Source: Escherichia coli (lineage in GTDB: Bacteria > Pseudomonadota > Gammaproteobacteria > Enterobacterales > Enterobacteriaceae). From it: a DNA stretch of 64,000 nucleotides. Position 1 is the stretch's first letter, and every line of letters starts with the position of its first letter. Of the stretch, positions 1 to 51,233 are shown one piece after another. The translations under genes and the position numbers were made by a program. The notes below the pieces were generated by a model. It made no database searches. It was given only the letters and a program-made list of their open reading frames with translations, and had not been told where the DNA came from. The stretch lies in NCBI RefSeq assembly GCF_003019035.1, contig NZ_CP027447.1. One strand, written 5' to 3'.

Positions 1-483
1 AAACTGAATCACCCCTTCTTCATTAAGATGCTGGCGCATTATTGCCGCTGCTTGCTGGCGTGTTTGTGCGTCTGATTCACTGACTGCGTTGATGGCCGCG
101 AAAATCTCATCATGACGGCGTACGTGATAGTCGACCGGCGCAATATCAATCGCCACCAGCTTGTCAATGCGATCGGGGGCTAGTGCAGTAAGAGCCATTA
201 CCGCTTTACCGCCCATGGAGTGACCGATAAATGTTGCTTTGTCGATCTGCTGTGCATCCAGGGTATCAACAAGATCCTGCGCCATCGCCGGGTAATTCAT
301 TACCGGATCTCTCGGTGAAAGACCGTGGTTACGCATATCAACCTGGATGATATTGTGATCGTTTACCAGATCGCGAGCCAGTACGCCAAGGTTGTCGAGG
401 CTGCCAAACAGACCATGGACAAGAACGATGGGAGAATTATTGTGCTGGTTTTGTGCAGTTTGCGCGCGGATATTCAATTTCAT
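1..483 (-). CDS. ybfF: Esterase YbfF (alpha/beta hydrolase), 3' end truncated by window start
   Basis: Minus-strand translation from ATG (rc of cat at 481-483) gives MKLNIRAQTAQNQHNNSPIVLVHGLFGS, the YbfF N-terminus; reading frame open to position 1. Confidence 0.85.
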   Translation of the reverse strand, partial: MKLNIRAQTAQNQHNNSPIVLVHGLFGSLDNLGVLARDLVNDHNIIQVDMRNHGLSPRDPVMNYPAMAQDLVDTLDAQQIDKATFIGHSMGGKAVMALTALAPDRIDKLVAIDIAPVDYHVRRHDEIFAAINAVSESDAQTRQQAAAIMRQHLNEEGVIQF

Positions 484-667
484 GGCAAAGTTCTTTTTTT
501 CGCGTTGTCGGGTTAGGGTATTATGTTGACCATTGTGCCACAGGGCTGCAACAAATAAGGTTTATTCCGAGTTTTTCTGCAAGCCAGGCTTGACGCTATC
601 CGCTGCCGGGATTTATTCATATACTCCTGGCGACTTGTATTCAGCTAAGACACTGCACTGGATTAAG

Positions 668-1213
668 ATGAAAACGATTGAAGTTGATGATGAACTCTAC
701 AGCTATATTGCCAGCCACACTAAGCATATCGGCGAGAGCGCATCCGACATTTTACGGCGTATGTTGAAATTTTCCGCCGCATCACAGCCTGCTGCTCCGG
801 TGACGAAAGAGGTTCGCGTTGCGTCACCTGCTATCGTCGAAGCGAAGCCGGTCAAAACGATTAAAGACAAGGTTCGCGCAATGCGTGAACTTCTGCTTTC
901 GGATGAATACGCAGAGCAAAAGCGAGCGGTCAATCGCTTTATGCTGCTGTTGTCTACACTATATTCTCTTGACGCCCAGGCGTTTGCCGAAGCAACGGAA
1001 TCGTTGCACGGTCGTACACGCGTTTACTTTGCGGCAGATGAACAAACGCTGCTGAAAAATGGTAATCAGACCAAGCCGAAACATGTGCCTGGTACGCCGT
1101 ATTGGGTGATCACCAACACCAACACCGGCCGTAAATGCAGCATGATCGAACACATCATGCAGTCGATGCAATTCCCGGCGGAATTGATTGAGAAGGTTTG
1201 CGGAACTATCTAA
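668..1213 (+). CDS. seqA: Replication initiation negative regulator SeqA (181 aa)
   Basis: ORF 533..1213 with internal start [33 protein letters not shown] matching SeqA; classical seqA-pgm arrangement. Confidence 0.95.
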
Positions 1214-1238
1214 AACGTTGCAGACAAAGGACAAAGCA

Positions 1239-2879
1239 ATGGCTATCCACAACCGTGCAGGCCAACCTGCACAACAGAGTGATTTGATTAACGTCGCCCA
1301 ACTGACGGCGCAATATTATGTACTGAAACCAGAAGCAGGGAATGCGGAGCACGCGGTGAAATTCGGTACTTCCGGTCACCGTGGCAGTGCAGCGCGCCAC
1401 AGCTTTAACGAGCCGCATATTCTGGCGATCGCTCAGGCAATTGCTGAAGAACGTGCGAAAAACGGCATCACTGGCCCTTGCTATGTGGGTAAAGATACTC
1501 ACGCCCTGTCCGAACCTGCGTTCATTTCCGTTCTGGAAGTGCTGGCAGCGAACGGCGTTGATGTTATTGTGCAGGAAAACAATGGCTTCACTCCGACGCC
1601 TGCCGTTTCCAATGCCATCCTGGTTCACAATAAAAAAGGTGGCCCACTGGCAGACGGTATCGTGATTACACCGTCCCATAACCCGCCGGAAGATGGTGGT
1701 ATCAAGTACAATCCGCCAAATGGTGGCCCGGCTGATACCAACGTCACTAAAGTGGTGGAAGATCGTGCCAACGCACTGCTGGCCGATGGCCTGAAAGGCG
1801 TGAAGCGTATCTCCCTCGACGAAGCGATGGCATCCGGTCATGTGAAAGAGCAGGATCTGGTGCAGCCGTTTGTGGAAGGTCTGGCCGATATCGTTGATAT
1901 GGCGGCGATTCAGAAAGCGGGCCTGACGCTGGGCGTTGATCCGCTGGGCGGTTCCGGTATCGAATACTGGAAGCGTATTGGCGAGTATTACAACCTTAAC
2001 CTGACCATCGTTAACGATCAGGTCGATCAAACCTTCCGCTTTATGCACCTCGATAAAGACGGCGCGATCCGTATGGACTGCTCCTCCGAGTGTGCGATGG
2101 CGGGTCTGCTGGCACTGCGTGATAAGTTCGATCTGGCGTTTGCTAACGACCCGGATTATGACCGTCACGGTATCGTCACTCCGGCAGGTTTGATGAATCC
2201 GAACCACTACCTGGCGGTGGCGATCAATTACCTGTTCCAGCATCGTCCGCAGTGGGGCAAAGATGTTGCCGTTGGTAAAACGCTGGTTTCTTCTGCGATG
2301 ATCGACCGTGTGGTCAATGATTTGGGCCGCAGGCTGGTGGAAGTGCCGGTAGGCTTCAAATGGTTTGTTGATGGCCTGTTCGACGGCAGCTTCGGCTTTG
2401 GCGGCGAAGAGAGCGCAGGGGCTTCCTTCCTGCGTTTCGACGGCACGCCGTGGTCCACCGATAAAGACGGCATCATTATGTGTCTGCTGGCGGCGGAAAT
2501 CACCGCTGTCACCGGTAAGAATCCGCAGGAACACTACAACGAACTGGCAAAACGCTTTGGTGCGCCGAGCTACAACCGTTTGCAGGCAGCTGCGACTTCC
2601 GCACAAAAAGCGGCGCTGTCTAAGCTGTCTCCGGAAATGGTGAGCGCCAGCACCCTGGCTGGTGACCCGATCACCGCGCGCCTGACGGCAGCACCGGGCA
2701 ACGGTGCTTCTATTGGCGGTCTGAAAGTGATGACTGACAACGGCTGGTTCGCCGCGCGTCCGTCAGGCACAGAAGACGCATACAAAATCTACTGCGAAAG
2801 CTTCCTTGGTGAAGAACATCGCAAGCAGATTGAGAAAGAAGCGGTTGAGATTGTTAGCGAAGTTCTGAAAAACGCGTAA
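1239..2879 (+). CDS. pgm: Phosphoglucomutase (546 aa)
   Basis: ORF 1188..2879; start at MAIHNRAGQ; phosphohexomutase motifs (TSGHRG, GGEESAG); length matches Pgm. Confidence 0.95.
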
Positions 2880-2896
2880 ACACATTTAATAAGAAA

Positions 2897-2926
2897 AAGG
2901 GCGGTCAGAAGATCGCCCTTTTTTAC
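2897..2926 (+). terminator. Rho-independent terminator downstream of pgm
   Basis: GC-rich hairpin aagggcggtcagaagatcgccctt followed by T-run. Confidence 0.75.
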
Positions 2927-2934
2927 TTATGACT

Positions 2935-3033
2935 GCCTGATGCGCTACGCTTATCAGGCTTGGGAAGATGGTGCAATGTATTGAATTTGCTCTATTTTGT
3001 AGGCCGGATAAGGCGTTCACGCCGCATCCGGCA
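2935..3033. repeat. REP/BIME element (two REP palindromes)
   Basis: gcctgatgcgctacgcttatcaggc and aggccggataaggcgttcacgccgcatccggca match the E. coli REP consensus. Confidence 0.8.
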
Positions 3034-3083
3034 TGAACAACGAGCGCTTTGCCAACAAACTGAATAGCTCAAGGGAATTCAAA

Positions 3084-3578
3084 ATGAAGACCAAAAGGAG
3101 TCTGGTCGTCAGAGTGGCATTAATTACCGCCACACTACTGCTGACAGCATGCGCCCAACCTGAACAATCATCATTAGCTGGTGACTGGTTACTGACCCCT
3201 AAAGATAAAACCAGAGGATTAACGGGGAGCATTGCGGTAAATATTGCGCCTTCCCGGTGTAAGACAAATTGCCGTGGCGATAACTTACCTGATAATACCC
3301 GCCGCTGGCAGTTGTCAGGCGGGAACGAAAAAGAACTTACTTATCTTCATGATATGTCAGCACAAGAAAAGACCGGTTTAAATCCTGAATGGCAATGCTA
3401 CACCTCATTTTTTATGGGGATTTGCCAGGGTAAGCCCGGCACTCGACCGATAGTTAATGAGGATTATGTCAGCGAAAGCGGATTTTTTGGCTCGATGATG
3501 CATGTAGGGATTATTGAGTTGCGACGCTGTCAGTCAGAAAATTGCCAGCAAGAATTGAAAGCGATAAACACACATTAA
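3084..3578 (+). CDS. ybfP: Lipoprotein YbfP (164 aa)
   Basis: Start MKTKRSLVVRVALITATLLLTAC has a lipoprotein signal with lipobox LLTAC; position after pgm. Confidence 0.85.
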   Translation: MKTKRSLVVRVALITATLLLTACAQPEQSSLAGDWLLTPKDKTRGLTGSIAVNIAPSRCKTNCRGDNLPDNTRRWQLSGGNEKELTYLHDMSAQEKTGLNPEWQCYTSFFMGICQGKPGTRPIVNEDYVSESGFFGSMMHVGIIELRRCQSENCQQELKAINTH

Positions 3579-3618
3579 AATAGCGAGTCCGGGAATGAAA
3601 CCCGGACCTGAACATGTC

Positions 3619-4269
3619 TTATTGCGTGATTGTTTCTTTCATTTGATACTGCATTTCCCAGAGTTCAGTAAGCGAAATAACTTTTCTTGTTCTTGCTTCT
3701 TCACATTGTACCCATAAGAAAGGGTAGAAAGTGAAGGCTTCCGTTGCCGATAATTTTATTACGTCTTCTTGCCATTGCGGCCAGCGTACATTTTCATAGA
3801 AGGTATCTAAATCACCGGATAATGCCCACTGAAGAAACTCAGAATATCCAACCTCCAGACTTTCCCAATTCAGCGTATCTGGCGCAAAATAATAAACGCA
3901 GCCAGTATCTTCCCCAAGATCGCCACCATTAAGAGCAAAAATTCCCCCTGCGACATCATCGGCGATGGGTAAAGCCCGCACGCTTGCGAATTCAGGGCGT
4001 TGTGTCCAACTTGCTGGATCTCGTGGTAACCGGGGGTGACCAGAGCCTGCTATGCGTAACCAACCGTTATCAATCAGCAGACCTCCGGAGCCATAGACAA
4101 GCGCACCCATCGGTGATTTTGTTGTAACCTGTAATTGATAAAGTGCGGTTTCGGCTAAATCTTTATTAACCGGTAAGAGTTCGGCATGGTTTGTGGCTTC
4201 TTTTAACCAATTCTGGATTATTGGCCAGGCTGAATCTTCAGTATTTACTAACTGACTCACTTCACGCAT
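3619..4269 (-). CDS. Conserved hypothetical protein (YbfG-like), apparently intact 216 aa
   Basis: ORF 3619..4377; preferred start MREVSQ at 4269 preceded by AAGGAG at 9-nt spacing; family assignment from synteny only. Confidence 0.55.
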   Translation of the reverse strand: MREVSQLVNTEDSAWPIIQNWLKEATNHAELLPVNKDLAETALYQLQVTTKSPMGALVYGSGGLLIDNGWLRIAGSGHPRLPRDPASWTQRPEFASVRALPIADDVAGGIFALNGGDLGEDTGCVYYFAPDTLNWESLEVGYSEFLQWALSGDLDTFYENVRWPQWQEDVIKLSATEAFTFYPFLWVQCEEARTRKVISLTELWEMQYQMKETITQ

Positions 4270-4391
4270 CGCTACTTGCTCCTTGTGTGCTACGGTGTCA
4301 TTTATGATGAGGCATTGTATGGGACATTTTTTAAATATTAAGTTCCTTATATTTGAATAAAAAATGACTTTATCCATACATTGCCACTTTT

Positions 4392-4530
4392 TTCAAAGCA
4401 TAAACCGATACCCAATACCGGTTTCAGTAATGAAATGGCGGGGCGGACGAGATCCTGTTCCAGTTTTTGTCGCAAATGCCTCATATAATTACGCAAATAG
4501 TTGCTGTGTTCGACCGCGTTTGGACCCTAC
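4392..4530 (-). pseudogene. Paralogous fragment of the kdpE 3' end (response-regulator C-terminal remnant)
   Basis: About 140 bp roughly 90 percent identical to kdpE 3' end at 8734-8875 (aaagcataaaccgatacccaataccggtttcagtaatgaaatggcgg...); no start codon or receiver domain. Confidence 0.8.
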
Positions 4531-4577
4531 ACCTGCCGGATGCGGCATAAATAACGAACTCTTTGTCAACAAACAGA

Positions 4578-4606
4578 AAGGGCGATCATTCAATCGCCCT
4601 TTTTTA
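4578..4606. terminator. Hairpin terminator between the kdpE fragment and potE, probably bidirectional
   Basis: aagggcgatcattcaatcgccct hairpin followed by T-run on plus strand, A-run on the other side. Confidence 0.65.
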
Positions 4607-4617
4607 TTTCGCTTTTT

Positions 4618-5937
4618 TTAACCGTGTTTATTTTTCAGTTCAAAGCGTGGAGATACCAGACCATACAGTGTCCAACCAAGGAAGGTCACGATGGAACCGT
4701 ACAGCATGGCTTCTTCCCCGGATGAGTACAGCGCATAGAAACTGTACATCGCACCAACAAAGGCAACAAAGTTTGCTACTTTCGCTTTTGACGGTGGCAC
4801 ATTGGCGACCTGCTGAATAATGACTAACGCCGCCATCGACAGAATATACGGGATGATATTGGTCACCACGGCCAGGTTAACCAGCACGTTGAACTGGCTG
4901 TTCAGTGACGGGCTAATGGTCATCAGTGCCAATCCACTCTGAATAATCACAATGGTCAACATTCCCTGAACCGGTGCATCCACTTTGGTTACACGGGAGA
5001 AAATTTTAGGGAAGTAGCCTTCATCAGATGAAGATTTAAACACCTGGGCAATGGTGAACTGCCAGCCAAGCAGTGAACCGCAGCAGGACATCACCATCAG
5101 CGCCATAATGACTTTACCCACTTCCGGCGTGAACATCTGTGCGAAGGCCAGGCCAAATGGTGCCGTTGAATTTGCCAGCTCCATATTGGGCACAATCCCG
5201 GCAATCACGTTGGTGGAGACGATATAAATCACTGCCGCACCTAACGTACCGCCAAGGACTGCTATTGGCACGTTACGTTCCGGGTTTTCCACTACTTCGG
5301 CGTTGGCACAGGCAGACTCCAGACCGAGGAAAGCCCACAACGTCATGGCGATGGAGGAACCTACAGCGCTAAAGAACGGTACATGATGAGGGTTCCATGA
5401 GTTAGCGTACAGCGTCGGGCTAAACCAGAACCAGCCGATAATGCACAGACCGACGACCGGAATAATGACCCCCCACACAGTAATGCTACTGATTTGCCCG
5501 GTAATGCGCGCACCACCAAAGTTAGCCACGGTACAAATCCACAGCACTCCGATGGTCGCAAGACCAATCTGCACTGGCGACAAACTCGCGCCGAGCAGTT
5601 CGGTGCCGTAACCAACCGCCGAAATAGCAATTGCGACGTTAGCAATCAGCAGCGAGACACCGTAGGTGTAGTTCGCCATAAAGTTACCGGATTTACCGAA
5701 AGCATACTCGGCATAACCGCCCATACCACCTGATTTACGGCTGAACATGCCGCATTTTGCGAATGCCCATGCCAGCGCCATTGAGCCTACGGCAGTCACC
5801 AACCAGGAGATTATTGAGATTGTCCCAACTTCGGCAAGCTTTGTCGGCAGCATGATGATACCGGAGCCCATCATGTTGACCATCGTCAGTATGGTTAACT
5901 GAACGACGCCCATTTTGTTCGATTTAGCCTGACTCAT
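4618..5937 (-). CDS. potE: Putrescine-ornithine antiporter PotE (439 aa)
   Basis: ORF with APC-family membrane protein sequence MSQAKSNKMGVVQLTILTMVNMMGSGIIMLP; overlaps speF stop by 4 nt. Confidence 0.95.
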   Translation of the reverse strand: MSQAKSNKMGVVQLTILTMVNMMGSGIIMLPTKLAEVGTISIISWLVTAVGSMALAWAFAKCGMFSRKSGGMGGYAEYAFGKSGNFMANYTYGVSLLIANVAIAISAVGYGTELLGASLSPVQIGLATIGVLWICTVANFGGARITGQISSITVWGVIIPVVGLCIIGWFWFSPTLYANSWNPHHVPFFSAVGSSIAMTLWAFLGLESACANAEVVENPERNVPIAVLGGTLGAAVIYIVSTNVIAGIVPNMELANSTAPFGLAFAQMFTPEVGKVIMALMVMSCCGSLLGWQFTIAQVFKSSSDEGYFPKIFSRVTKVDAPVQGMLTIVIIQSGLALMTISPSLNSQFNVLVNLAVVTNIIPYILSMAALVIIQQVANVPPSKAKVANFVAFVGAMYSFYALYSSGEEAMLYGSIVTFLGWTLYGLVSPRFELKNKHG

Positions 5938-8132
5938 AATTTTTCCCCTTTCAACAGGATGCTTTGCGCATCACGAGGCTTGATGACATAGCACCAAACT
6001 TGCTTACGACCATCATGTTCTTCGATATAGACACCCTGAAGCTCCGGTGCAAAACCTGGCAGCAGGTTGATCCCTTCTTCCAGAGCGCTGAAGTAACGCA
6101 GAACAGCACCACCCCAGATTTCACCCGGAACAACACACAGCACACCCGGAGGATAAGGAAGCGCACCTTCTGCAGCGATACGGCCTTCTGCATCCGGCAG
6201 ACGAACCAGCTCCACTTCACCGCGTAAATAGGCGTAGTTGGCTTCTTGTGGATTCATGCTGACACGTGGGAAGTGTTCCTTACGAAACATCTCTTTTTGC
6301 AGTTGTTTCACGTTGTGACGGGCATACAAATCATGCATTTCCTGACACAACTGACGCAGGGTATAACCGGTGTAGCGCTCTTCATGCTGTTTGTAGATGG
6401 AAGGCAGTACTTCTGATAATGGCGCGTCGGACTCAAGCAGTTTTTCGAAGCGTACCAGCAGAGCAGCAAGTTGCTGAAGTTTGGCCATATCTTCTGCCGG
6501 AGTCAGCAGAAAGAGGATGGAGTTAAGATCGCATTTTTCCGGCACTACGCCATTTTCGCGCAGGAAGTTAGCAAGAATCGTCGCGGGTACACCGAACGCT
6601 TCATATTCGCCGTTACGTGCATCAATACCTGGGGTTGTCAGCAACAGTTTGCACGGATCGACAAAGTATTGATTCTCTGCATAGCCTTCAAAAGAATGCC
6701 AGTGCTCACCTGGTACAAACTGGAAGAAGCGCAGATCAACCGCAATTTGCGCTGTTTCATACGACTGCCAGGGTTTACCATCCACCAGTTCAGGTACGAA
6801 TGGACGAATATGCTGACAGTTATCGAGGATCAGTTTGCGGGCATTAATGCCATTTACCACACAATCCATCCACATATTACGACCGCTGACACCTTCATGC
6901 ATTTTGGCGTTGATATCCAGTGCGGCAAACAGCGGATAGAACGGGCTGGTGGAGGCATGCATCATAAAGGCGTTGTTCATGCGTTTGTGCGGTACATAAC
7001 GCTGTTGCCCTTTGATATGGCTGTCTTTTTTATGGATTTGTGAAGTCTGGGAAAAACCAGCCTGCTGTTTATGCACAGATTGCGTAACCAGAATACCCGG
7101 ATCGTTCTCATTAAGATCCAGCAACAGTGGTGAACAGTCCGCCATCATCGGGATAAACTGCTCATAGCCGACCCATGCGGAGTCAAAGAGGATGTAGTCA
7201 CACAGATGACCAATTTTATCCACCACCTGACGGGCGTTATAAATCGTACCGTCGTAAGTGCCTAGCTGAATAACGGCGAGGCGGAAAGGACGCGCCTCTT
7301 TTGCCCGCTGCGGTGCGACTTCTGTAATCAGTTCGCGCAGGTAATTTTCTTCGAAGCAGTGGGCATCAATACCACCGATAAAGCCATACGGGTTGCGTGC
7401 GGTTTCCAGATAAACTGGTGTTGCGCCAGCCTGTAGCAACGCTCCGTGGTGATTAGATTTATGGTTATTACGGTCAAACAGCACCAGATCCCCCGGTGTT
7501 AACAGGGCGTTTAAAACCACTTTGTTAGAAGATGAAGTGCCATTTAGAACGAAGTATGTTTTATCGGCATTAAACACTTTTGCCGCATGTTGCTGTGCAA
7601 TGCATGGCGCGCCTTCGTGAATCAGCAGATCGCCCATTGCCACATCCGCGTTGCACAAGTCAGCACGGAACAGCGCCTCACCAAAGTATTCCACAAACTG
7701 ATTCCCCGCCGGATGGCGACGGAAAAATTCGCCGCCCTGATGACCGGGGCAATCAAACGCGCTGTTACCCTGATTGACATAATCGACCAGTGCGCGGAAG
7801 AAGGGCGGGCGCAGTTGAGTTTCATAATGGCTGGCTGCGGTTTCTAACTGACGACCATAAAATTCTCGTCGCGATTCGCAATTCTCAAAGACACCCGAAA
7901 TACGGGGCAAATACTCTGCGGGTACACGTTCTTGATTTTCAGTAGCAATAAATACCGGGATGCCATAACCCGTGGCATCGATTTCATCGAGTTTTCCGCG
8001 TGTAACATCGTTGAGCGATAAAACTATTGCCGCCACATCGATATTACTGTTTTCATTAATATAGATACATTCTCGCTGCGTGGTAAAACAGTCCGGGCAA
8101 GAATCACTAACCGCAATTTTTAATTTTGACAT
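5934..8132 (-). CDS. speF: Inducible ornithine decarboxylase SpeF (732 aa)
   Basis: ORF 5934..8210 with start at MSKLKIAVSDSCPDC; PLP-dependent Orn/Lys/Arg decarboxylase; speF-potE operon. Confidence 0.95.
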   Translation of the reverse strand: MSKLKIAVSDSCPDCFTTQRECIYINENSNIDVAAIVLSLNDVTRGKLDEIDATGYGIPVFIATENQERVPAEYLPRISGVFENCESRREFYGRQLETAASHYETQLRPPFFRALVDYVNQGNSAFDCPGHQGGEFFRRHPAGNQFVEYFGEALFRADLCNADVAMGDLLIHEGAPCIAQQHAAKVFNADKTYFVLNGTSSSNKVVLNALLTPGDLVLFDRNNHKSNHHGALLQAGATPVYLETARNPYGFIGGIDAHCFEENYLRELITEVAPQRAKEARPFRLAVIQLGTYDGTIYNARQVVDKIGHLCDYILFDSAWVGYEQFIPMMADCSPLLLDLNENDPGILVTQSVHKQQAGFSQTSQIHKKDSHIKGQQRYVPHKRMNNAFMMHASTSPFYPLFAALDINAKMHEGVSGRNMWMDCVVNGINARKLILDNCQHIRPFVPELVDGKPWQSYETAQIAVDLRFFQFVPGEHWHSFEGYAENQYFVDPCKLLLTTPGIDARNGEYEAFGVPATILANFLRENGVVPEKCDLNSILFLLTPAEDMAKLQQLAALLVRFEKLLESDAPLSEVLPSIYKQHEERYTGYTLRQLCQEMHDLYARHNVKQLQKEMFRKEHFPRVSMNPQEANYAYLRGEVELVRLPDAEGRIAAEGALPYPPGVLCVVPGEIWGGAVLRYFSALEEGINLLPGFAPELQGVYIEEHDGRKQVWCYVIKPRDAQSILLKGEKL

Positions 8133-8389
8133 TTTCCAACTCTTTATTTTTGGTAATAGCAGGTCCTCAATTTCTCGAATGAGAAATCGATCGTGCCGGA
8201 AAAAAAGCAAAGTTACCCTGCTGATAAATTAATCAGAAGTTTGCTTTTTTCAGAATGCAGAAACCCTTATCAGTCCGGTGGCTGATAATACAAGGGTTAA
8301 CAGAGAATGAGCACTGCGGAATACAGGCATATGCCTGTAATACAGAGAGTCAGGAAGACCTGTACGCTGAAGTGCCCTTAGTCGGTAGA

Positions 8390-8494
8390 CTAACGGGCAT
8401 TGAAGAAGTGAAAGTCGAAGCTATTGCGATGAGCAAACTTCATAATATGAGTTGTCCGCCTTATATGGGGCATAGTGCGGCTGTTATTTTCCAT
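8390..8494 (-). promoter_or_regulatory. speFL: speFL leader ORF encoding the ornithine-sensing arrest peptide (34 aa)
   Basis: Minus-strand translation is exactly MENNSRTMPHIRRTTHIMKFAHRNSFDFHFFNAR, upstream of speF. Confidence 0.85.
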
Positions 8495-8664
8495 TTAATT
8501 TACCTTTCCTGATGTGAATGAAGGTGAAGGTATTCTATCCAGGAAATACGGTTGAACTGTGAAGGTGATCAATAAAAAATGATCAATCTTAATTTATTTA
8601 ATGATGAGCTTTTTACTCAGTAATATAAAATATTGAATTGTTATTTTTGTGTGTTGTTTAAGAT

Positions 8665-8695
8665 AAAAAGCCGTATTTATTATTACGGCTTTAAT
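8665..8695 (-). terminator. Rho-independent terminator downstream of kdpE
   Basis: Hairpin gccgtatttattattacggc with T-run on the minus strand. Confidence 0.6.
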
Positions 8696-8727
8696 TAATA
8701 AAAGGCAGGATGTATTAAAATTAATAT

Positions 8728-9405
8728 TCAAAGCATAAACCGATACCCAATACCGGTTTCAGTAATGAAATGGCGGGGGCGAGCGGGATCCTGTTCCAGT
8801 TTTTGTCGCAGATGTCCCATATAAATACGCAAATAATGGCTGTGTTCGACCGCGTTTGGCCCCCACACCTGGTTAAGGAGCTGGCGCTGGGTGAGCACTT
8901 TTCCGGCATTGTTGAGCAGCACCGCCAGCAGGCGAAACTCAATCGGGGTGAGATGCACCTCTTCCTCACCGCGATGGATCACGCGGGCGGCTAAATCGAC
9001 GGTCACATCGGAAAATTTCACCAGCGGATCGGGCGCGGTGGTGGCGGAGTGGCGGCGTAAAGCGACGCGCAGACGGGCCTGCAATTCGCCAATGCCAAAC
9101 GGCTTACTCAGGTAATCATCCGCTCCGGCATCCAGCGCGGCGATTTTGTCGCTCTCTTCGCTGCGTGCGGAAAGCACAATCACCGGCACCGCGCTCCACT
9201 GGCGCAGGTCGCGGATAAACTCAATCCCATCACCATCGGGCAGGCCGAGATCGAGAATAATCAAATCTGGCTTACGGGTTGCCGCTTCCAGCAAGCCGCG
9301 TTGCAGCGTTTCGGCCTCAAAGACGCGCATCCCGTCGCCCTCCAGCGCCGTGCGCAGAAAGCGACGAATAGCCTGTTCATCTTCAACAATCAGAACGTTT
9401 GTCAC
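8728..9405 (-). CDS. kdpE: Response regulator KdpE (225 aa)
   Basis: [23 protein letters not shown] receiver domain plus winged-helix C-terminus; overlaps kdpD stop. Confidence 0.95.
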   Translation of the reverse strand: MTNVLIVEDEQAIRRFLRTALEGDGMRVFEAETLQRGLLEAATRKPDLIILDLGLPDGDGIEFIRDLRQWSAVPVIVLSARSEESDKIAALDAGADDYLSKPFGIGELQARLRVALRRHSATTAPDPLVKFSDVTVDLAARVIHRGEEEVHLTPIEFRLLAVLLNNAGKVLTQRQLLNQVWGPNAVEHSHYLRIYMGHLRQKLEQDPARPRHFITETGIGYRFML

Positions 9406-12086
9406 ATATCCTCATGAAATTCTTCAAGTTCAGGGGCTATTTGCTGGGGAAGTGTAACACGAAAACAGGCACCACCTTCCGGTCGGTTGAATGCGGTAAT
9501 GGTGCCGCCGTGTACATCCACAATCGCCCGACAAATTGCCAGCCCAAGCCCGACGCCCGGCACTGCCGACTCTTTATTCCCGCGGGCAAACTTATCGAAT
9601 ATCGTCTGCTCCTGGCCTGGCGGAAGACCGGGGCCGTTATCCCAGACATCCAGTTGTAGATTTTCGCCCTCAACGTGGGCATCGATACCAATTTCGGCCT
9701 GCGCACCCGCGTATTTCACCGCGTTCTCCAGCAGATTAATCAGCACCCGTTCAAAGAGTGGCCCGTCAACGTGGATTAAGGTCAGCGGCTCTGGCAGAGA
9801 AAGATTGATGGGCGACGATAAACCCGGTTCCAGCATTTGCAGCGCGCTGCCGACCACTTCTTCCAGCGTTAACCACTCTTTCTTCAAATTAAAGCCGCCG
9901 GACTGAATTCGCGCCATATCCAGTAGATTATTCACCAGTCGGGTCGTGTTCAGCACATGCTGGCGAATCTCGCTGGCCTGGCGGGCGTGGGGCGATCCTT
10001 CGCTTGCCAGATCGAGCGTTAAGATTTCTGCCTGACCGAACAGCACCGTAAGCGGCGTGCGTAAATCATGCGAAAGTGCCGCCAGCAGGGCATTGCGGAT
10101 CTGTTCTCGTTCGCTTGCCATCCGCGCCTGTTCTTCGCTGGCGGTCAGCGTCAGCCGCTCAAGGGCATTGGCGACTAACAGCGTAAACGTCTCCAGCAGG
10201 CGCTGCTGTTCCGGGATCATCAATTGACGCAGATTCCCCGGTTCCACCACCACCAGTCCGTAGGTTTTCTCGCCGCTTTTTAGCGGCAAAATCTGGTACG
10301 GTACACCGGGTAACGTGTCGGTGCCCGCGCCCGCAGGCAGGCCTTTATCAAAACTCCACTGCGCGATGGCATCGTCCCACGGCGTCATTCCTTGCGGATG
10401 TGTTAACGGCTGCAATTTACCGTTGTCATCGGGTAACAGCACCTGACTGCGGGCATGAAACGTGGAGGCAATAAATTGTTCGCTGGTGGCGGCGATGTCC
10501 TGCGGACTGCGGCCCACAGCCAGAGCTTTCGACATTTCATATAAGTGCCGTGTGCGTTGCTCGCGGTAACGGGCTACCCGCGCCTGATAACGCACGCCAG
10601 CAGTAAGGTTCCCGATCACCAGCCCGACGGTTAACATCACCGCGAAGGTCAGCAGATATTGCACATCAGAGACGGCGAGCGTGCCGCGTGGGGCGATAAA
10701 AAAGAGATCGAAACTCACTACATTAATGACGGTGGCGACCACCGAAGGCCAGCGTCCATAAAATAGCGCCACCACCACCACGCCAAGCAGATACAGCATC
10801 ACCAGGTTGGCGGCATCAAACGCCATCAGCCACTGCATGGCAATTAAGGTGATAACGGCGCATAACGCGGCGGCAACCACGCATCCCTGAATCTGTACCC
10901 GCCACTTGTCTTTAAAAGAGCGGCTATCCGGCGCGTTGTTAATCGTGCGGGCGGGTGGGTCATCAAGCGCGACCAGCACCTGATCGAGATCGGGGGCGAT
11001 ACGCGCCAGTCGGTCAGCAAACGTTTCCCGACGCCACCAGCGGCGCGAGGCCGGGCGACCGAGAATAATCTTGCCGAGATTATGTTCACGGGCATAACGC
11101 ACTACCGCTTTCTCTTCCGCTGGATCAGAAAGTGTTGCCGTCTCCGCGCCCAGCTCCTGCGCCAGACGTAAGGCGCTGAGAATTGCCCGACGTTTTTTCT
11201 CCGGTAAGCGATGCAGGGCAGGGGTTTCAACATACACCGCGTGCCAGACACTGCCCAGGCGCGAGGCCAACCGCGCCGCCGCGCGGACCAGTTTCTCACT
11301 GCCGGTGTTATGCCCGATGCATAAAAGGATCGCGTCGCGCGTGTGCCAGACTTTCTCTTCGCCAGGATGCCCCCGCCAGGCGCGCATTTGCTCATCTACG
11401 CGATCGGCAGTACGGCGCAGTGCCAGTTCGCGCAGGGCGATCAGATTGCCTTTGCGAAAAAAATGTTCAATGGCGCGCTCCGCCTGCCCGGCAATATAGA
11501 CTTTGCCTTCTTTCAGCCGCTGGCGCAGATCGTCCGGGGGCAAGTCCACCAGTACTACGTCGTCGGCGGCATCAAAAAAAGGATCGGGCACGGTCTCCCG
11601 TACCTGAATTCCGGTGACGCCGCTGACCACATCATTCAGACTTTCCAGATGCTGAACGTTAACGGTAGTGAAAACATCAATGCCAGCTTCCAGCAGCTCC
11701 TCAATGTCCTGCCAGCGTTTGGGATGACGAGAACCTGGCGCATTACTGTGCGCCAGTTCGTCCATTAAGATCAGTGCCGGACGGCGGGCGAGGGCGGCAT
11801 CGAGATCAAACTCGCTGATGTGCCGCCCACGGTACGCCTGGCGTTTTAACGGCAGAACAGCCAGCCCTTCCAGCATTGCGGCGGTATCTTTCCGCCCGTG
11901 GGTTTCTACCACGCCAACCACAATATCCAGCCCTTGCGCCCGCAGTCGCTGGGCTTCCGCCAGCATCGCCCAGGTCTTCCCGACGCCTGCGCAGGCACCG
12001 AAGAAAACTTTCAGCTTCCCCCGATGCGGCGCGGCAGTTTGTTCCAGCAGACGATCGGGGTCGGGACGTAAGGGTTCGTTATTCAT
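9402..12086 (-). CDS. kdpD: Sensor histidine kinase KdpD (894 aa)
   Basis: ORF 9402..12119 with start at [16 protein letters not shown]; KdpD N-terminal domain, Usp domain, 4 TM, HisKA/HATPase. Confidence 0.95.
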
Positions 12087-12651
12087 CAAGCTTATCCAGC
12101 GCCAGATTGAGTTCGACAATGTTGACGACCGGCTGGCCGATATAGTTCACCAGCGGTTGTTGGCTGTATTTTGCGATCAGTTGCGTGAGCTGTTCAACGC
12201 TGAGATTACGCGCTTTCGCCACGCGTGGGATCTGCCAGGCCGCCGCTTGCGGGGTGATGTTATTGTCCAGCCCGCTTGCCGACGCCGTCACCAGTTCAAC
12301 CGGAACGCTCGTGCTGGCGTCCGGGTTAGCGGCCCGTAATGCGGCAACGCGTGCGGCTATCTGTTTATCCAGCTCCGGGTTACTGACTGCCAGATTGCTC
12401 CCGCCAGAAGCCTGTGGATTATAGGGCATTTCTGCTGTTGCCGACGGGCGACCATGAAAATAGCCGTTGCCGGTAAAATTTTGCCCGATTAATGCCGAAC
12501 CGCGCACCGTATCACCTTCACGAATCAATGAACCGTTGGCCTGCCAGGGAAACCACCATTGCCCCAGTGCGGTGGTCAGCAGCGGGTAAACGCCGCCAGT
12601 AATCAATAACAGAAAGAGAAATGTCGATAATGCCGGACGTAATCCACTCAT
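12079..12651 (-). CDS. kdpC: K+-transporting ATPase subunit KdpC (190 aa)
   Basis: Start [27 protein letters not shown]; operon position. Confidence 0.95.
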
Positions 12652-12659
12652 GGTAAACC

Positions 12660-14708
12660 TCACACCAGACCGCAAACGGTTAGCAGTAAATCAATGACTT
12701 TGATACCAATAAACGGCACCAGCAGCCCACCCAGACCGTAAATCCATAAGTTACGGCGCAACATGGCAGAAGCGGTAAGCGGTTTATAACTCACGCCTTT
12801 TAACGCCAGGGGAATCAAAAAGACGATAATCAAGGCGTTGAAAATCACCGCACTGAGAATGGCGGAGTCGGGCGAATGCAGGCGCATGATGTTCAGCGCA
12901 TTTAACTGCGGATACGTTGCCGCGAACGCCGCCGGAATAATGGCGAAGTATTTCGCCACATCGTTGGCAATGCTGAAGGTGGTCAGCGAGCCACGGGTCA
13001 TCAGCATCTGTTTGCCAATATGTACCACCTCGATCAACTTGGTCGGGTTGGAGTCGAGATCCACCATATTGCCCGCTTCTTTCGCCGCCTGAGTACCAGA
13101 GTTCATCGCCACCGCGACATCTGCCTGCGCCAGCGCCGGAGCATCGTTGGTGCCGTCGCCGGTCATCGCCACCAAACGGCCTTCCGCCTGATACTGACGA
13201 ATCAATGCCAGCTTGGCCTCCGGTGTCGCTTCGGCGAGAAAATCATCGACACCCGCTTCCGCAGCTATCGCGGCGGCAGTCAGACGGTTATCACCGGTAA
13301 TCATCACCGTTTTAATGCCCATTTTACGCAGCTGGGCGAAGCGCTCTTTAATACCGCCTTTGACGATATCTTTCAGCGCAATAACGCCCAGCACACGAGA
13401 ACCTTCCACCACCACCAGCGGCGTAGCTCCCTGACGCGCAACCTGATCGACTTTTTGATCAACATCGGCAGGGAAGTGACCACCGTTAGCCTCAACATGG
13501 CGGCGAATGGCATCGACAGAACCTTTACGGATCATGCGGTTGTCGATGTTGATCCCGCTCATCCGGCTTTGCGCAGTAAACGGTACAAAGGTGGCGTGAA
13601 GCGACTGCACATCGCGCTCACGCAGGTTAAAACGCTGCTTGGCGAGGATCACAATACTGCGGCCTTCCGGCGTTTCATCAGCCAGCGAAGCCAGTTGTGC
13701 GGCGTCAGCCAGCGTTTTTTCATCCACGCCCTGCGCAGGGATAAACTCCGACGCCTGACGGTTACCAAGTGTGATGGTGCCGGTTTTATCCAGTAGCAGA
13801 ACGTCAACGTCACCTGCCGCTTCAACTGCACGTCCGCTGGTGGCAATCACATTCGCGCCCAGCATCCGACTCATCCCGGCGACGCCAATCGCTGACAACA
13901 GGCCGCCAATAGTGGTTGGGATCAGACAGACCAGCAGCGCCACCAGTACCGTTACACTCACTGCATTACCGCCCCACGCGGAAAACGGCCATAGCGTGGC
14001 GGTTGCCAGTAAAAAGACGATAGTCAGGGCAATCAGGAGAATGGTCAGGGCAATCTCGTTCGGCGTTTTGCGTCGCTGTGCGCCTTCCACCATTGCGATC
14101 ATCCGATCCAGAAATGTCTCGCCGGGGTTAACGCTGCACTCAATCACCAGCCAGTCAGAAAGAATACGCGTGCCGCCAGTGACGGAGGCAAAATCGCCGC
14201 CGGATTCACGGATCACCGGTGCCGATTCCCCGGTGATGGCGCTTTCATCGACCGATGCGCCCCCTTCAATGACTTCACCATCGCAGGGGATAATATCGCC
14301 AGCTTCTACCAGCACGATGTCACCTTTACGCAGTTGAACGGCAGGAACTTTGTCCGCCGCAGCGCCATATTTCGGCTCACGCAGCTTGCGGGCAAAGGCA
14401 GTTTTTTTCACCCCTTTCAGACTGTTGGCCTGCGCTTTACTGCGGCCTTCTGCCAGCGCCTCGGCGAAATTAGCGAACAGTACGGTGACCCACAGCCAGC
14501 CGCTAATTGCCGCGCTAAACAGCGCATTGCCAGGCATCGCCCCGCTTGCCATCGCGATGCTAATACAGGTGGTCAGCAGACTGCCGATCCAGACGATAAA
14601 CATCACCGGATTGCGCCATTGCGCCTGCGGGTTTAATTTTTTCACCGCTTCTTTCAGCGCCTGAACGACAAGTGTTGGTTCGAATAGCGCCAGTTGTTTA
14701 CGACTCAT
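12660..14708 (-). CDS. kdpB: K+-transporting P-type ATPase subunit KdpB (682 aa)
   Basis: P-type ATPase motifs (DKTGT, TGDN, GDGTND). Confidence 0.95.
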
Positions 14709-14730
14709 ATTCAGTGCTCACTCAATATCA

Positions 14731-16404
14731 TCAGGAGAGATATTCCGCCACCGGACCAAGCGCCAGGGCAGGGATAAAGGTCAGTGCGCCAACCAGCAAC
14801 ACGGTGCCGATTAACAGGCCAACAAACAGCGGGCCGTGCGTTGGCAATGTGCCGGAGCTGGCGGGTTGGCTCTTTTTACTCACCAGCGAACCGGCAATTG
14901 CCATCACCGGGATAATCACCCCGAAGCGCCCGACAAACATGCACAACGCCAGTAAACAGTTCCAGAATGGAGAGTTGGCGCTTAATCCGGCAAAGGCGCT
15001 GCCGTTGTTGTTAGCGGCGGATGACACGGCGTACAGCACTTCGCTAAAACCATGCGGGCCAGGGTTGAGCATGGCGCTACGTCCGGCGTCGGTCATCATT
15101 GCCAGCGCCGCGCCCATCAGCACCAGCGTCGGGGTGACCAGAATCGCCAGTGCAGTCAGTTTCATCTCGCGTACGTCGATTTTTTTACCCAGATATTCCG
15201 GTGTACGACCAATCATCAGCCCGGCAATAAACACCGCCAGCAGGACAAACAGCATCATGCCGTAAAGGCCGGAACCGACGCCGCCGAATACCACTTCACC
15301 AATTTGCATCAACCACATCGGCACCATGCCACCAAGAGCGGTAAACGAATCATGCATCGCAATCACCGCGCCGCAGGAAGCCGCCGTAGTCACGACCGCA
15401 AACAGGCTACTGACCAGCACGCCGAAACGGCTCTCTTTACCTTCCATATTGATGCTGCTGTCCGCGCCGAGCGCCAGCAGATGAGGATTACCCTGAACTT
15501 CTGCCCACATCACTACGCCTACGCAGATGACAAAAATCACCGACATCGCCCACAGCAACATGCGCCCCTGGCGACGATCGCCCGCCACTTCACCAAAGGC
15601 AAAGCACAGCGCTGTTGGGATCAAGAAAATCGCCAGCATTTGCACGAAGTTGGTCAGTGCGGTTGGGTTTTCAAACGGATGCGACGAGTTGGCATTAAAG
15701 AAGCCACCGCCGTTAGTACCGAGCATCTTGATCGCTTCCTGAGAAGCTACTGGCCCCATTGGTAACAGCTGTTGCGCTCCTTCAATGGTCGTCACAGCCT
15801 GATAAGGCTGAAAGTTTTGCAGTGCACCTTGTTGAATAAAAAACAGTGCGATCAACAATGCCACAGGGGCTAACACCCATAACGTGATGCGTAGCAGATC
15901 GACCCAGGCATTACCGAGCGTGCTCATGCTCTGGCGGGTAAACGCACGGATGAGGGCAAAAATCACCGCAATCCCGCTGGCGGCAGAAAGAAAGTTTTGC
16001 ACCGTTAAGCCCGCCATCTGGCTGAAATAGCTCAACGTGGTTTCACCGCTATAAGATTGCCAGTTGGTATTCGTGACAAAGCTGACGGCGGTATTGAGCG
16101 CCAGATCCCACGACAGCCCCGGCAACTGCTGTGGATTAAGCGGCAAATAGTGCTGACCGAGCAACATAAAAAACAGCACCGCCAGCCCCAGCATATTCAG
16201 GCCAAGAATGGCTGAGAGATACTGCTTCCAGTTCATCTCGCGGTCAGAGACGCCAAGCGCGCTAAAGAGTACGCGTTCAACGCCCGTCGTACCAGGAAGA
16301 GGAATATCATTAATCAGCCGCGCCAGCCCGCTGCCTAAAGGACGTGCCAGCACCATTAACACCAGTAAAAACGTGGCGATCAGTAAGAACCCTTGCGCAG
16401 CCAT
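14731..16404 (-). CDS. kdpA: K+-transporting ATPase subunit KdpA (557 aa)
   Basis: ORF 14731..16536 with start at [24 protein letters not shown]. Confidence 0.95.
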
Positions 16405-16481
16405 CAGAACGCCTCCGCATTGATCAGGGCATAAACCAGATAACCCAGTAATAAAAACACCAGCAACACGCCTGCACTCAC
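16404..16481 (-). CDS. kdpF: KdpF small subunit, apparently GTG-initiated (25 codons)
   Basis: Small hydrophobic ORF ending [20 protein letters not shown] overlapping kdpA start; GGAGG 6 nt upstream of GTG. Confidence 0.7.
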
Positions 16482-16793
16482 AGTGCACCTCCAGTGGCCG
16501 AAAAGTGATATCGGAAGGGTAGAATTCTGGCTGCAAAGATTTCGCAAAAATCTGCGGGCGGGGTGTAAAAAAAGTATAAAAATGGCAAAAGCCATGATTT
16601 AACTGATGGTTAGTATTAATTTAACTTTTGTGTAACTTAATTACAGTGTGAATGTAAATAAACCATCAATAAGCAAAAATAAGTGGTCGGATGAGTAGTA
16701 AAATTACACAAAAGGCGGTACTATTTTCATCAGATAAACAAATTCATTTTTCCGGTGCCATTCACCGGGTAGATACAACAGGGGGAGAAAAGT

Positions 16794-17000
16794 ATGGAAC
16801 TTTACAGAGAATATCCTGCATGGCTTATCTTTTTACGCCGTACTTATGCGGTTGCAGCGGGCGTTCTGGCGCTGCCTTTCATGCTTTTCTGGAAAGACCG
16901 CGCCCGCTTTTACAGCTACCTGCACCGCGTCTGGTCGAAAACCAGCGAGAAACCGGTGTGGATGGATCAGGCCGAAAAGGCAACTGGTGATTTTTACTGA
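16794..17000 (+). CDS. ybfA: Small protein YbfA (68 aa)
   Basis: [68 protein letters not shown]; divergent from kdp promoter. Confidence 0.85.
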
Positions 17001-17021
17001 TTGCTGAGTTCTGAATACATT

Positions 17022-17056
17022 GAAAACCGCCAGCGGAAACGCTGGCGGTTTTTTTG
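17022..17056 (+). terminator. Rho-independent terminator after ybfA
   Basis: Hairpin aaaccgccagcggaaacgctggcggttt followed by T-run. Confidence 0.8.
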
Positions 17057-17243
17057 TATCAGGAAGATGTTCAGAGGAATATTTAGACACCGTTATACCA
17101 ATCGAAACATATATTCATAAAACATATATAAATATTTTCCTAATTGTTTCTATCTGACGGATATCTCACTTAAGGCTTTCTTATAAATCTGTAGGGTTTC
17201 GCCTGTCAGCAGACAAATAACCCGATAAAACAAGGATGAGCAG

Positions 17244-20200
17244 ATGAGCGGAAAACCGGCGGCGCGTCAGGGCGACATGACGCAGTATGGCGGTAGCATT
17301 GTTCAGGGTTCAGCCGGGGTACGTATTGGTGCTCCCACCGGCGTGGCCTGTTCGGTGTGCCCCGGCGGGGTGACGTCCGGCCATCCGGTCAATCCGCTGC
17401 TCGGTGCGAAGGTCCTTCCCGGCGAAACCGACCTTGCCCTGCCCGGCCCGCTGCCGTTCATCCTCTCCCGCACCTACAGCAGTTACCGGACAAAAACGCC
17501 CGCGCCGGTGGGGAGCCTCGGCCCCGGCTGGAAAATGCCCGCGGATATCCGCTTACAGCTGCGCGATAACACACTGATACTCAGTGATAACGGCGGCAGG
17601 AGCCTGTATTTTGAGCACCTGTTTCCCGGTGAGGACGGTTACAGCCGCAGCGAGTCACTCTGGCTGGTGCGCGGCGGCGTGGCGAAACTGGATGAAGGTC
17701 ACCGGCTGGCCGCACTCTGGCAGGCGCTGCCGGAAGAGCTTCGCCTGAGTCCGCATCGTTATCTGGCGACGAACAGTCCGCAGGGGCCGTGGTGGGTACT
17801 CGGCTGGTGTGAGCAGGTGCCGGAGGCGGATGAGGTGCTGCCCGCGCCGCTGCCGCCGTACCGGGTACTGACCGGGCTGGTGGACCGCTTCGGGCGCACA
17901 CAGACGTTTCACCGTGAGGCTGGCGGTGAATTCAGCGGCGAAATCACCGGCGTGACGGATGGTGCCGGGCGTCACTTCCGGCTGGTACTGACCACGCAGG
18001 CGCTGCGGGCAGAAGAGGCCCGGCAGCAGGCCATTTCCGGCGGGACGGAACCGTCCGCTTTTCCTGATACCCTGCCGGACTACACGGAATATGGCCGGGA
18101 CAACGGCATCCGCCTGTCCGCCGTGTGGCTGACGCACGACCCGGAATATCCGGACAACCTGCCAGCCGCGCCGCTGGTACGCTATGGCTGGACGCCACGC
18201 GGCGAACTGGCGGCGGTGTATGACCGCAGCGGCACACAGGTGCGCAGCTTTACTTACGATGATAAATACCGGGGCCGGATGGTGGCGCACCGTCACACGG
18301 GCCGGCCGGAAATCCGTTACCGTTACGACAGCGACGGGCGGGTGACAGAACAGCTAAACCCGGCAGGCTTAAGCTACACGTATCAGTATGAGAAAGACCG
18401 CATCACCATCACCGACAGCCTGGACCGCCGTGAAGTCCTGCACACGCAGGGCGAAGGCGGGCTGAAGCGGGTGGTGAAAAAGGAACACGCGGACGGCAGC
18501 GTCACGCAGAGTCAGTTTGACGCGGTGGGCAGGCTTAAGGCACAGACGGATGCCGCAGGCCGGACGACTGAGTACAGCCCGGATGTGGTGACGGGACTCA
18601 TCACGCGCATCACCACGCCGGATGGCAGGGCATCGGCGTTTTACTATAACCACCACAGCCAGTTAACGTCAGCCACCTGGCCTGACGGGCTGGAAATACG
18701 CCGGGAATATGATGAATCCGGCCGTCTGATTCAGGAAACCGCCCCTGACGGCGATATCACCCGCTACCGTTATGATAATCCACACAGTGACTTCCCCTGC
18801 GCAACGGAGGATGCCACCGGCAGCCGGAAAACCATGACGTGGAGCCGTTACGGTCAGTTGCTGACCTTCACCGACTGTTCCGGCTACCAGACCCGTTATG
18901 ACCATGACCGCTTCGGGCAGATGACGGCGGTGCACCGCGAGGAAGGCCTGAGCCAGTGCCGCGCATACGACAGCCGTGGACAGTTAATTGCGGTGAAAGA
19001 CACGCAGGGCCATGAAACGCGGTATGAATACAACGCCGCCGGTGACCTGACCGCCGTCATTGCCCCGGACGGCAGCAGAAACGGGGCACAGTACGATGCG
19101 TGGGGAAAGGCCGTCCGTACCACGCAGGGCGGGCTGACCCGCAGTATGGAATACGATGCTGCAGGACGGGTCATCCGCCTGACAAACGAAAACGGCAGCC
19201 ACACCACCTTCCGTTACGATGTACTCGACCGGCTGATACAGGAAACCGGCTTTGACGGCCGCACACAGCGTTACCACCACGACCTGACCGGCAAACTTAT
19301 CCGCAGCGAGGATGAGGGGCTGGTCACCCACTGGCACTATGACGAAGCAGACCGCCTCACGCAGCGCACCGTGAATGGCGAAACCGCAGAGCGGTGGCAG
19401 TATGACGAACGCGGCTGGCTGACAGGCATCAGCCATCTCAGCGAAGGGCACCGGGTGACGGTGCATTACAGGTATGATGAGAAAGGCCGCCTGACCGGTG
19501 AGCGCCAGACGGTGCATCACCCGCAGACGGAAGCACTGCTCTGGCAGCATGAAACCAGACATGCGTACAATGCGCAGGGGCTGGCGAACCGCTGTATACC
19601 GGACAGCCTGCCCGCCGTGGAATGGCTGACTTATGGCAGTGGTTACCTGGCAGGGATGAAGCTGGGTGACTCGCCCCTGGTGGAGTACACCCGCGACCGC
19701 CTGCACCGGGAAACGCTGCGCAGCTTCGGCCGTTATGAACTCACCACCGCTTATACCCCTGCCGGGCAGTTACAGAGCCAGCACCTGAACAGCCTGCAGT
19801 ATGACCGCGATTACACCTGGAACGACAACGGCGAACTCATTCGCATCAGCAGCCCGCGCCAGACCCGGAGTTACAGCTACAGCGACTCCGGCAGGCTGAC
19901 CGGCGTTCACACCACCGCAGCGAACCTGGATATCCGCATCCCGTATGCCACGGACCCGGCAGGTAACCGCCTGCCCGACCCGGAGCTGCACCCGGACAGC
20001 ACCCTCAGCATGTGGCCGGATAACCGTATCGCCCGTGACGCGCACTATCTTTACCGGTATGACCGTCACGGCAGGCTGACGGAGAAAACCGACCTCATCC
20101 CGGAAGGGGTTATCCGCACGGATGATGAGCGGACTCACCGGTACCATTACGACAGCCGGCACCGGCTGGTGCACTACACGCGGACACAATATGCAGAGCC

Positions 20201-21443: not shown

Positions 21444-22009
21444 AAAGAATTTTGTTCTTTTTGCTGATGATATTTGTTAGTTTTGGTGTTATAGCTGATT
21501 GCGAAACACAAGCTAAAGATCAAGATTGCTTTACCATTTTCACTAAGGGTACTATTTTTTCCGCGTTTCCTGTCTTAAATAATAAAACCATATGGAGATG
21601 GTATCAGAATGAGGACATAGGTGAGTATTATTGGCAAACAGAACTTGGTATATGTAAAAATAACAAATTCACACCAAGCGGGGCGAGACTCTTAATTCGC
21701 GTCGGATCACTACGCCTTAATGAAAATCATGCAACCAAAGGAACGTTGCAGGAGTTGCTAAATACAGCAGAAAAAACGGCGTTTCTCGGCGATCGGTTTA
21801 GAAGTTATATAAGAGCGGGTATCTATCAAAAAAAGAGCAGTGATCCAGCTCAGTTGTTGGCAGTCCTTGATAATTCAATCATGGTTAAATATTTTAAAGA
21901 TGAGAAGCCAACTTATGCTCGAATGACAGCACATCTCCCGAACAAAGATGAGTCTTACGAATGTTTAACAAAAGTACAGCATGAACTGCTTCGTAGTGAA
22001 GAAAAATAA
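21440..22009 (+). CDS. Putative RhsC immunity protein with signal peptide (189 aa)
   Basis: ATGA overlap with rhsC stop; N-terminal signal peptide [19 protein letters not shown]; AT-rich. Confidence 0.7.
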
Positions 22010-22177
22010 AATCTCTTCCTGAGAAAATAAATTAACTATTCGAAAAAATATGTTCTTAATGGGTATCCAGGTACACCAGAAGGTCGATTTGGAAAAATGG
22101 ATTCCGATGGTAAGAATATCATATATTCTGAATGTAATGTTTTACCCACAACTTTTGAGATTCGATAGGTGTAGAGC

Positions 22178-51232: not shown

Positions 51233-51233
51233 T

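Follow-up and report, generated by a model that had tools for sequence, protein, structure and literature searches.

The interval 8390-8494 of the 64,000-nt stretch of Escherichia coli DNA analyzed here (the window) encodes on its minus strand a small gene made of an ATG, 33 further codons and a TAG stop, and the reverse complement translates into the peptide MENNSRTMPHIRRTTHIMKFAHRNSFDFHFFNAR. As the stop codon (8390-8392) falls inside the interval, there are 34 sense codons followed by the stop, and the ORF list of the window has the same 34-aa ATG ORF at 8390..8494, minus strand. The preliminary description of this interval gave no strand, which is the minus one; the plus strand reads LTGIEEVKVE..., without a start or a stop. 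Codons 1-18 are ATG GAA AAT AAC AGC CGC ACT ATG CCC CAT ATA AGG CGG ACA ACT CAT ATT ATG, and codons 19-34 with the stop are AAG TTT GCT CAT CGC AAT AGC TTC GAC TTT CAC TTC TTC AAT GCC CGT TAG. The gene lies between kdpE and the speF-potE pair (Table 1).

Identity and annotation of the leader gene

A search of all PDB chains with the peptide returned a single sequence, named SpeFL (6TBV and 6TC3), to which it is identical at 34 of 34 residues (E = 7.6e-20). Both entries are cryo-EM structures of stalled ribosomes containing SpeFL (Herrero del Valle et al., bioRxiv 10.1101/604074). At the nucleotide level the 105-nt gene has no base different from speFL of K-12 MG1655 (b4803), it is also the same as the annotated speFL of strain IAI39 (WP_211180488.1), and the 611 bases around it match the IAI39 genome at 100%, where RefSeq places "speFL, leader peptide SpeFL" between kdpE and speF. 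No sequence feature of the window locus argues against SpeFL identity. The view put forward in the preliminary description, that this 34-codon leader is the known arrest peptide, is thus borne out with no residue differing from the PDB sequence, and the exact comparison it asked for reveals no difference from published SpeFL in the stalling motif. It had also singled out an "HFFNAR stalling segment"; these residues are present, but the label is loose, the published anatomy being a sensor domain (residues 1-13) followed by an effector domain (14-34). Its remark that the leader is easily missed is right for ORF callers that filter by length but not for databases, since RefSeq annotates speFL in every speFL-bearing record that we opened (IAI39, K-12 MG1655, O111 RM9322, and UPEC132), and nearly all rows among the E. 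coli matches listed annotate it too, a few saying "hypothetical protein." The interval is therefore an intact speFL, already characterized, routinely annotated and ordinary, and there is nothing new in the element itself.

The Pfam model PF10940 ("SpeFL") gives the peptide E = 4e-5 and 23.8 bits, just below its gathering cut-off of 25, which we take as a property of the model because the query is the canonical, structurally solved sequence. No NCBIfam model matches the peptide either, so that annotation based on HMMs would miss speFL. Rfam has no family at the leader, both in an E-value scan of 7900-8900 and in a gathering-threshold scan of the whole window. On the plus strand, a doubtful 85-aa ATG ORF (8255-8512) lies antisense to speFL and the first part of the leader; none of the records examined annotates it.

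Table 1. Coordinates of the features at the speFL locus and of three accessory genes elsewhere in the window.
Feature	Position	Strand	Basis or remark
kdpE	8728-9405	-	annotation
Terminator-like hairpin and T-run after kdpE	8667..8692	-	sets upstream limit of speFL transcription unit
Putative -10 (TAGAAT, 8532-8537) and TSS (A at 8525)	8525..8537	-	Salmonella analogy
Shine-Dalgarno (SD) AGGAAAGG, 8 nt before speFL ATG	8503..8510	-	read from sequence
speFL ORF, 34 sense codons and TAG	8390..8494	-	translation; PDB identity; annotated in IAI39 and K-12
HIRRXXH ornithine-recognition motif (H-I-R-R-T-T-H), codons 10-16	8447..8467	-	codon list; bioRxiv 10.1101/604074
Effector domain, codons 14-34, with Phe20, Phe26, Phe28, Phe30, Phe31, Asn32, Ala33, Arg34	8393..8455	-	published residue roles
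Candidate rut site, C-rich and G-poor tract	8381..8455	-	composition (C/G 2.0-2.3 in 60-nt windows); putative limits
Hairpin UGCCC-G-UUAGUC/UACC/GACUAA-GGGCA over codons 33-34 and UAG	8373..8399	-	MFE and centroid folds; covariation
Putative pause site GGCACTTCAGCG, match to G-11 G-10 ... Y-1 G+1	8365..8376	-	regex match; consensus from bioRxiv 10.1101/604074
speFL-speF spacer, 257 nt	8133..8389	-	length as in bioRxiv 10.1101/604074
speF ribosome-binding region, SD AAGAGUUGG (8136-8144) and AUG (8130-8132)	8128..8144	-	predicted pairing inside speFL
speF, inducible ornithine decarboxylase, 732 aa, intact	5934..8132	-	TIGR04301, 1430.6 bits (cut-off 1310)
potE, putrescine-ornithine antiporter, 439 aa, intact	4618..5937	-	NCBIfam NF007938, 854 bits
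RHS element core protein, 1399 aa	17244-21443		NF041261, 2630 bits
189-aa ORF directly after RHS gene, no family match	21440-22009		possibly cognate immunity gene
ISAs1-family transposase	23884-24732

Downstream of the leader, potE overlaps the stop codon of speF by 4 nt. The 758-aa ORF starting with TTG in the ORF list (5934-8210) is an over-extended version of speF; the annotated ATG at 8132 leaves the published 257-nt spacer. Over its whole length the window differs from IAI39: identity is 99.6% over 1-17055, after which comes a 7.7-kb segment (17055-24755) that is absent from IAI39 at the corresponding position and contains the RHS element core gene, the 189-aa ORF, and the ISAs1-family transposase of Table 1. 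Upstream of gltA there are about 620 bp of different sequence (33542-34163) where IAI39 has an island of about 8 kb (a GntR regulator, an RraA-like protein, dehydrogenases, a UxaA-family hydrolase, and a TRAP transporter). From about 47300 to 64000 the two genomes are again collinear (98.7%), and this part carries accessory catabolic genes after sucABCD which, by the IAI39 annotation, comprise an RtcB-family gene, a hut (histidine utilization) cluster with a cytosine permease and a HAL/PAL-family lyase, and a methylaspartate ammonia-lyase/methylaspartate mutase cluster.

Sensor, effector and leader RNA

In the published structures, the HIRRXXH motif binds L-ornithine together with 23S rRNA, with Pro9, Arg12, and Arg13 contacting the ligand, and in the effector domain Phe20, Phe28, Phe30, and Phe31 pack around a strictly conserved Phe26 (bioRxiv 10.1101/604074). 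In the window peptide, Pro9, Arg12, Arg13, and the whole motif stand at the published residue numbers, and so do the phenylalanine core of the effector and the C-terminal Asn32-Ala33-Arg34. Codons 11-13 (8456-8464) are ATA AGG CGG, the last two being consecutive rare arginine codons. The same study describes rare arginine codons at 12 and 13, a UAG stop read by RF1, and a rut site overlapping speFL; it reports that the stalled ribosome has codon 33 or 34 in its P site and that the arrest occurs at termination, when RF1 is blocked at the UAG while the P site carries Arg34-tRNA (bioRxiv 10.1101/604074). Mutants in R12/R13 or H10/I11/H16, or lacking residues 1-7, abolished the ornithine-dependent arrest, and a double-frameshift template encoding a different peptide served as control (bioRxiv 10.1101/604074). 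Every published sequence feature of the switch is found here at its stated position.

The leader RNA is predicted to be highly structured. The RNA polymerase pause hairpin described in the literature is the one over the speFL stop codon (bioRxiv 10.1101/604074), and the 141-nt segment that contains it in the window folds more stably than 200 of 200 shuffled versions (z = -3.5); the whole leader, from the putative +1 (8525) to codon 11 of speF, reaches z = -4.5 against shuffles. The candidate rut tract overlaps the 3' two-thirds of speFL. A premature transcript 3' end is predicted at about 8366, and the 157-nt short transcript of Salmonella would map to about 8369 if transcription starts at 8525 (PMC6386406). 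This start, with its -10, is a weak assignment by analogy, placed so that the speFL AUG would be at +32 as in Salmonella orf34 (PMC6386406), and a consensus promoter scan picked up no sigma-70 site ahead of speFL. In Salmonella, orf34 is preceded by an AGGA Shine-Dalgarno and is efficiently translated (PMC6386406).

Within the spacer, folding predicts stem-loops at 8322-8339, 8262-8298, 8200-8251, and 8167-8190. In the predicted ensemble, the core of the speF Shine-Dalgarno (8137-8142) is paired with a probability of at least 0.9 to speFL segments 8403-8416 or 8449-8454. A long-range helix hiding the speF ribosome-binding site has been supported by compensatory mutations in Salmonella (PMC6386406), and the equivalent sequestration in E. 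coli is a prediction only, drawn from this folding and by analogy.

Conservation across Enterobacterales and two haplotypes in E. coli

One genome per species (GTDB representatives) was scanned with degenerate DNA for the pattern H-I-R-R-x-x-H-(9)-F-x-F-x-F-F. Out of 77 matches, 67-69 were SpeFL-like ORFs in Enterobacterales (Escherichia, Citrobacter, Salmonella, Kluyvera, Serratia, Cedecea, Atlantibacter, Plesiomonas, Ewingella, and others), the rest being chance matches in unrelated taxa. In all 65 loci with enough flanking sequence, the same strand carries a speF homologue that starts 197-381 nt further downstream. The search pattern itself imposes H10, I11, R12, R13, H16, F26, F28, F30, and F31, so that their invariance carries no independent weight; outside the pattern, M1, E2, N3, N4, R6, M8, T14, T15, M18, R23, and N32 are near-invariant in the orthologue set, positions 5 and 7 vary freely, and Lys19 is peculiar to Escherichia, the other orthologues having Met. 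Most orthologues keep AGG at codon 12, and they end in TAG (47) or TAA (22). Two contigs carrying speFL-speF bear unexpected labels, a 2.2-kb contig of a "Collinsella sp." MAG (JAIJJM010000551.1) whose genes are of the E. coli type of the window (type 1, 97-99% identical to it), and a contig labeled "Chryseobacterium sp. 18061" (CACSKA010000002.1) whose genes are enterobacterial. Both look like contamination or mislabeling.

The stop-codon hairpin is conserved as well. Over 37 distinct orthologous sequences, the pairing holds in 85.7% of cells, compared with 22-37% in controls whose 3' partners are shifted by 1-3 columns. Pairs 3-33 and 9-27 show compensatory changes, which involve codon wobble positions, the wobble base of codon 32 pairing as C-G (13), U-A (12), or U-G (8), and that of codon 34 as A-U (9), U-A (7), or G-C (2). 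One of 500 shuffles reached this covariation score. Because of register shifts the RNAalifold consensus of the alignment recovered only four pairs, and for that reason pairs were counted on a hand-specified structure with controls.

Within E. coli, megablast detected speFL of the window type in 1701-1704 of the 5426 complete genomes (~31%), almost always at 99% identity or more where found, and another allele (WP_001312672.1, peptide MENNNRLMPHIRRTTHIMKFAHRNSFDFHFFNAR, beginning MENNNRLMPH; type 2) in 3347 genomes (~62%). To read these counts as absence of the operon from 69% of E. coli, perhaps through deletion between the 145-bp kdpE/ybfI repeats, would be wrong, as two of the "negative" genomes carry a diverged speFL-speF-potE in the same place. 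The two genomes, O111 RM9322 and UPEC132, have the other haplotype at the same locus, and in the type 2 genomes listed the kdpE query matches at one place each. The repeat itself is direct and flanks speFL-speF-potE in the window (4392-4535 and 8727-8871, 92% identity), its copies being the 3' end of kdpE and a frameshifted fragment downstream of potE, which is the ybfI pseudogene in K-12 and is annotated in IAI39 as "winged helix-turn-helix ... frameshifted."

The alleles differ at 13 codons, 11 of them synonymously, with two non-synonymous changes (S5N and T7L). In codons 8-34 there are ten synonymous and no non-synonymous differences, although only 18.5% of the possible single-base changes in this part would be synonymous (~5e-8 if changes were random), and it is this contrast that indicates purifying selection on the SpeFL peptide. 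Both haplotypes share residues 8-34, the rare codons, the stop codon, and the hairpin, whereas the spacer of type 2 has a 51-nt insertion (310 nt vs. 257 nt in the window). By sliding identity, the divergent block extends from about 9000 (3' part of kdpE) to about 7100 (middle of speF, around codon 345). Identity is lowest in the promoter region (58-60% in 8540-8639), about 80% in speFL and the spacer including the 51-nt indel, 69-90% in the 5' half of speF, and at least 95% beyond the block. In two loci of the other haplotype (L005 and L006, 3535-3669 in each), RefSeq has a 44-aa ORF on the same strand overlapping the 5' end of speFL, named "hypothetical protein" in one record and "TonB-dependent receptor" in the other, which is probably a spurious call.

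A donor for the K-12-type haplotype was not found among the 77 fetched loci, and the best non-E. coli matches to the type 1 leader, contigs labeled Citrobacter or Raoultella (82-84%), are no closer than type 2. It is conceivable, if rather doubtful, that the K-12/window haplotype is an import from an unsampled Escherichia- or Citrobacter-like lineage, with ybfI as its scar, and that the haplotypes differ in the induction thresholds or promoter control of putrescine production. A limited literature search found no paper describing two haplotypes of the E. coli speFL region. Apart from this dimorphism of the control region, which might merit a separate look, the analysis yielded no non-obvious observation.

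Predicted ornithine-dependent control of speF-potE

SpeFL is a textbook case of the ribosome acting as a small-molecule sensor. Taken together, the interval almost certainly encodes this ornithine-sensing arrest peptide, controlling the speFL-speF-potE operon. The window shares with the K-12 locus the neighbors (kdpE and speF-potE), the Shine-Dalgarno, the rare codons, the UAG stop, the pause hairpin, and the length of the spacer (257 nt). No base differs in the ORF or in the ~85 nt after it; the distal half of the spacer has about 11 differences and one further base differs between the putative -10 and the transcription start, none of them in parts known to matter. What we have computed ourselves is the identity of the peptide and gene with K-12, the presence and order of the parts, and the conservation across species of the ORF, its position, and the hairpin. 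From the identity with the K-12 element, which has been studied by toeprinting, reporter assays, and cryo-EM, we infer that stalling here should depend on ornithine and termination on Rho, and, on the same sequence grounds, the reading given in the preliminary description, a conserved ornithine-dependent control of speF-potE, is supported.

The switch would then work as follows, with ornithine binding, the block of RF1, and the dependence on Rho taken from the literature. Transcription would start at the putative promoter, some tens of nucleotides before speFL, and RNA polymerase would pause at the stop-codon hairpin until the leading ribosome melts it. When ornithine is low, this ribosome would terminate at the UAG and depart; the following ribosomes would be held back by the slow AGG-CGG codons, so that the C-rich rut site, of putative limits, would be exposed and Rho would terminate transcription just past the hairpin. 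When ornithine is high, the HIRRXXH loop of the nascent chain and 23S rRNA would trap one L-ornithine molecule between them, and the Phe-rich C-terminal domain would compact and block RF1, leaving the ribosome stalled at the stop with Arg34-tRNA in the P site. Other ribosomes would queue behind it, masking rut and letting transcription run into speF-potE. Translation through speFL would probably also open the long-range helix that is predicted to sequester the speF ribosome-binding site.

An alternative has been proposed for the orthologous 34-codon speF leader of Salmonella Typhimurium, orf34, which also has consecutive AGG-CGG codons (abstract of Ben-Zvi et al., 2019, PMC6386406). There, the ORF would be mainly a sensor of arginine (charged tRNA-Arg), the speed of the ribosome over AGG-CGG setting the mRNA fold and the decay of speF mRNA by RNase G, with ornithine capture as secondary. 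The AGG CGG pair is present in the window, AGG is kept at codon 12 in most orthologues, and the leader folds far better than shuffled sequences (z = -4.5). However, cryo-EM and toeprints of the identical peptide reveal a direct and specific L-ornithine-dependent arrest in which Arg12 and Arg13 touch the ligand (bioRxiv 10.1101/604074), and the conservation at the amino-acid level seen over the whole C-terminal domain is more than a pure codon-speed sensor needs. The two leaders also differ. In Salmonella, Rho terminates just after the hairpin at the 3' end of the ORF and translation opens the helix hiding the speF ribosome-binding site (PMC6386406), but the stop is UGA instead of UAG and the leader is longer, with the speF AUG at +516 vs. 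about +394 estimated here and a spacer of ~380 nt vs. 257 nt, so that the "ring" structure of Salmonella may not transfer. As a replacement for ornithine sensing we consider this reading unlikely; the arginine and RNase G layer, shown in Salmonella only, would in practice be an added layer and not an exclusive alternative.

The strong predicted structure of the leader and the covariation of the hairpin would also fit an RNA element (a riboswitch or attenuator hairpins) in which the ORF is incidental or merely has to be translated. This is highly improbable, given the ten synonymous and no non-synonymous differences in codons 8-34 next to a flanking leader only ~80% identical between haplotypes, a peptide near-invariant across genera with variable third positions, and no match to any Rfam family, and it is largely refuted by the published mutants in R12/R13, H10/I11/H16, and residues 1-7 (bioRxiv 10.1101/604074). 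Small ORFs are certainly common, with dozens of 20-40 aa per 10 kb of the window, but a functionless chance resemblance to SpeFL is excluded by the 34/34 identity (E = 7.6e-20), the synteny with speF in 65 of 65 loci, and the purifying selection. A mechanistic parallel to the ornithine-sensing arrest peptide is TnaC of tnaCAB (tryptophan-dependent arrest), where a ligand-dependent block of release at the leader stop likewise masks rut and prevents Rho termination (bioRxiv 10.1101/604074); TnaC is an unrelated peptide with another ligand and another binding site in the exit tunnel, and not a member of the SpeFL family.

As far as sequence can, the comparison confirms the ornithine-inducible speFL-speF-potE switch, with its part in acid-stress and polyamine physiology, to be complete in this strain; beyond correct annotation this has little importance. 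The two old haplotypes could interest work on regulatory evolution or on strain differences in putrescine production.
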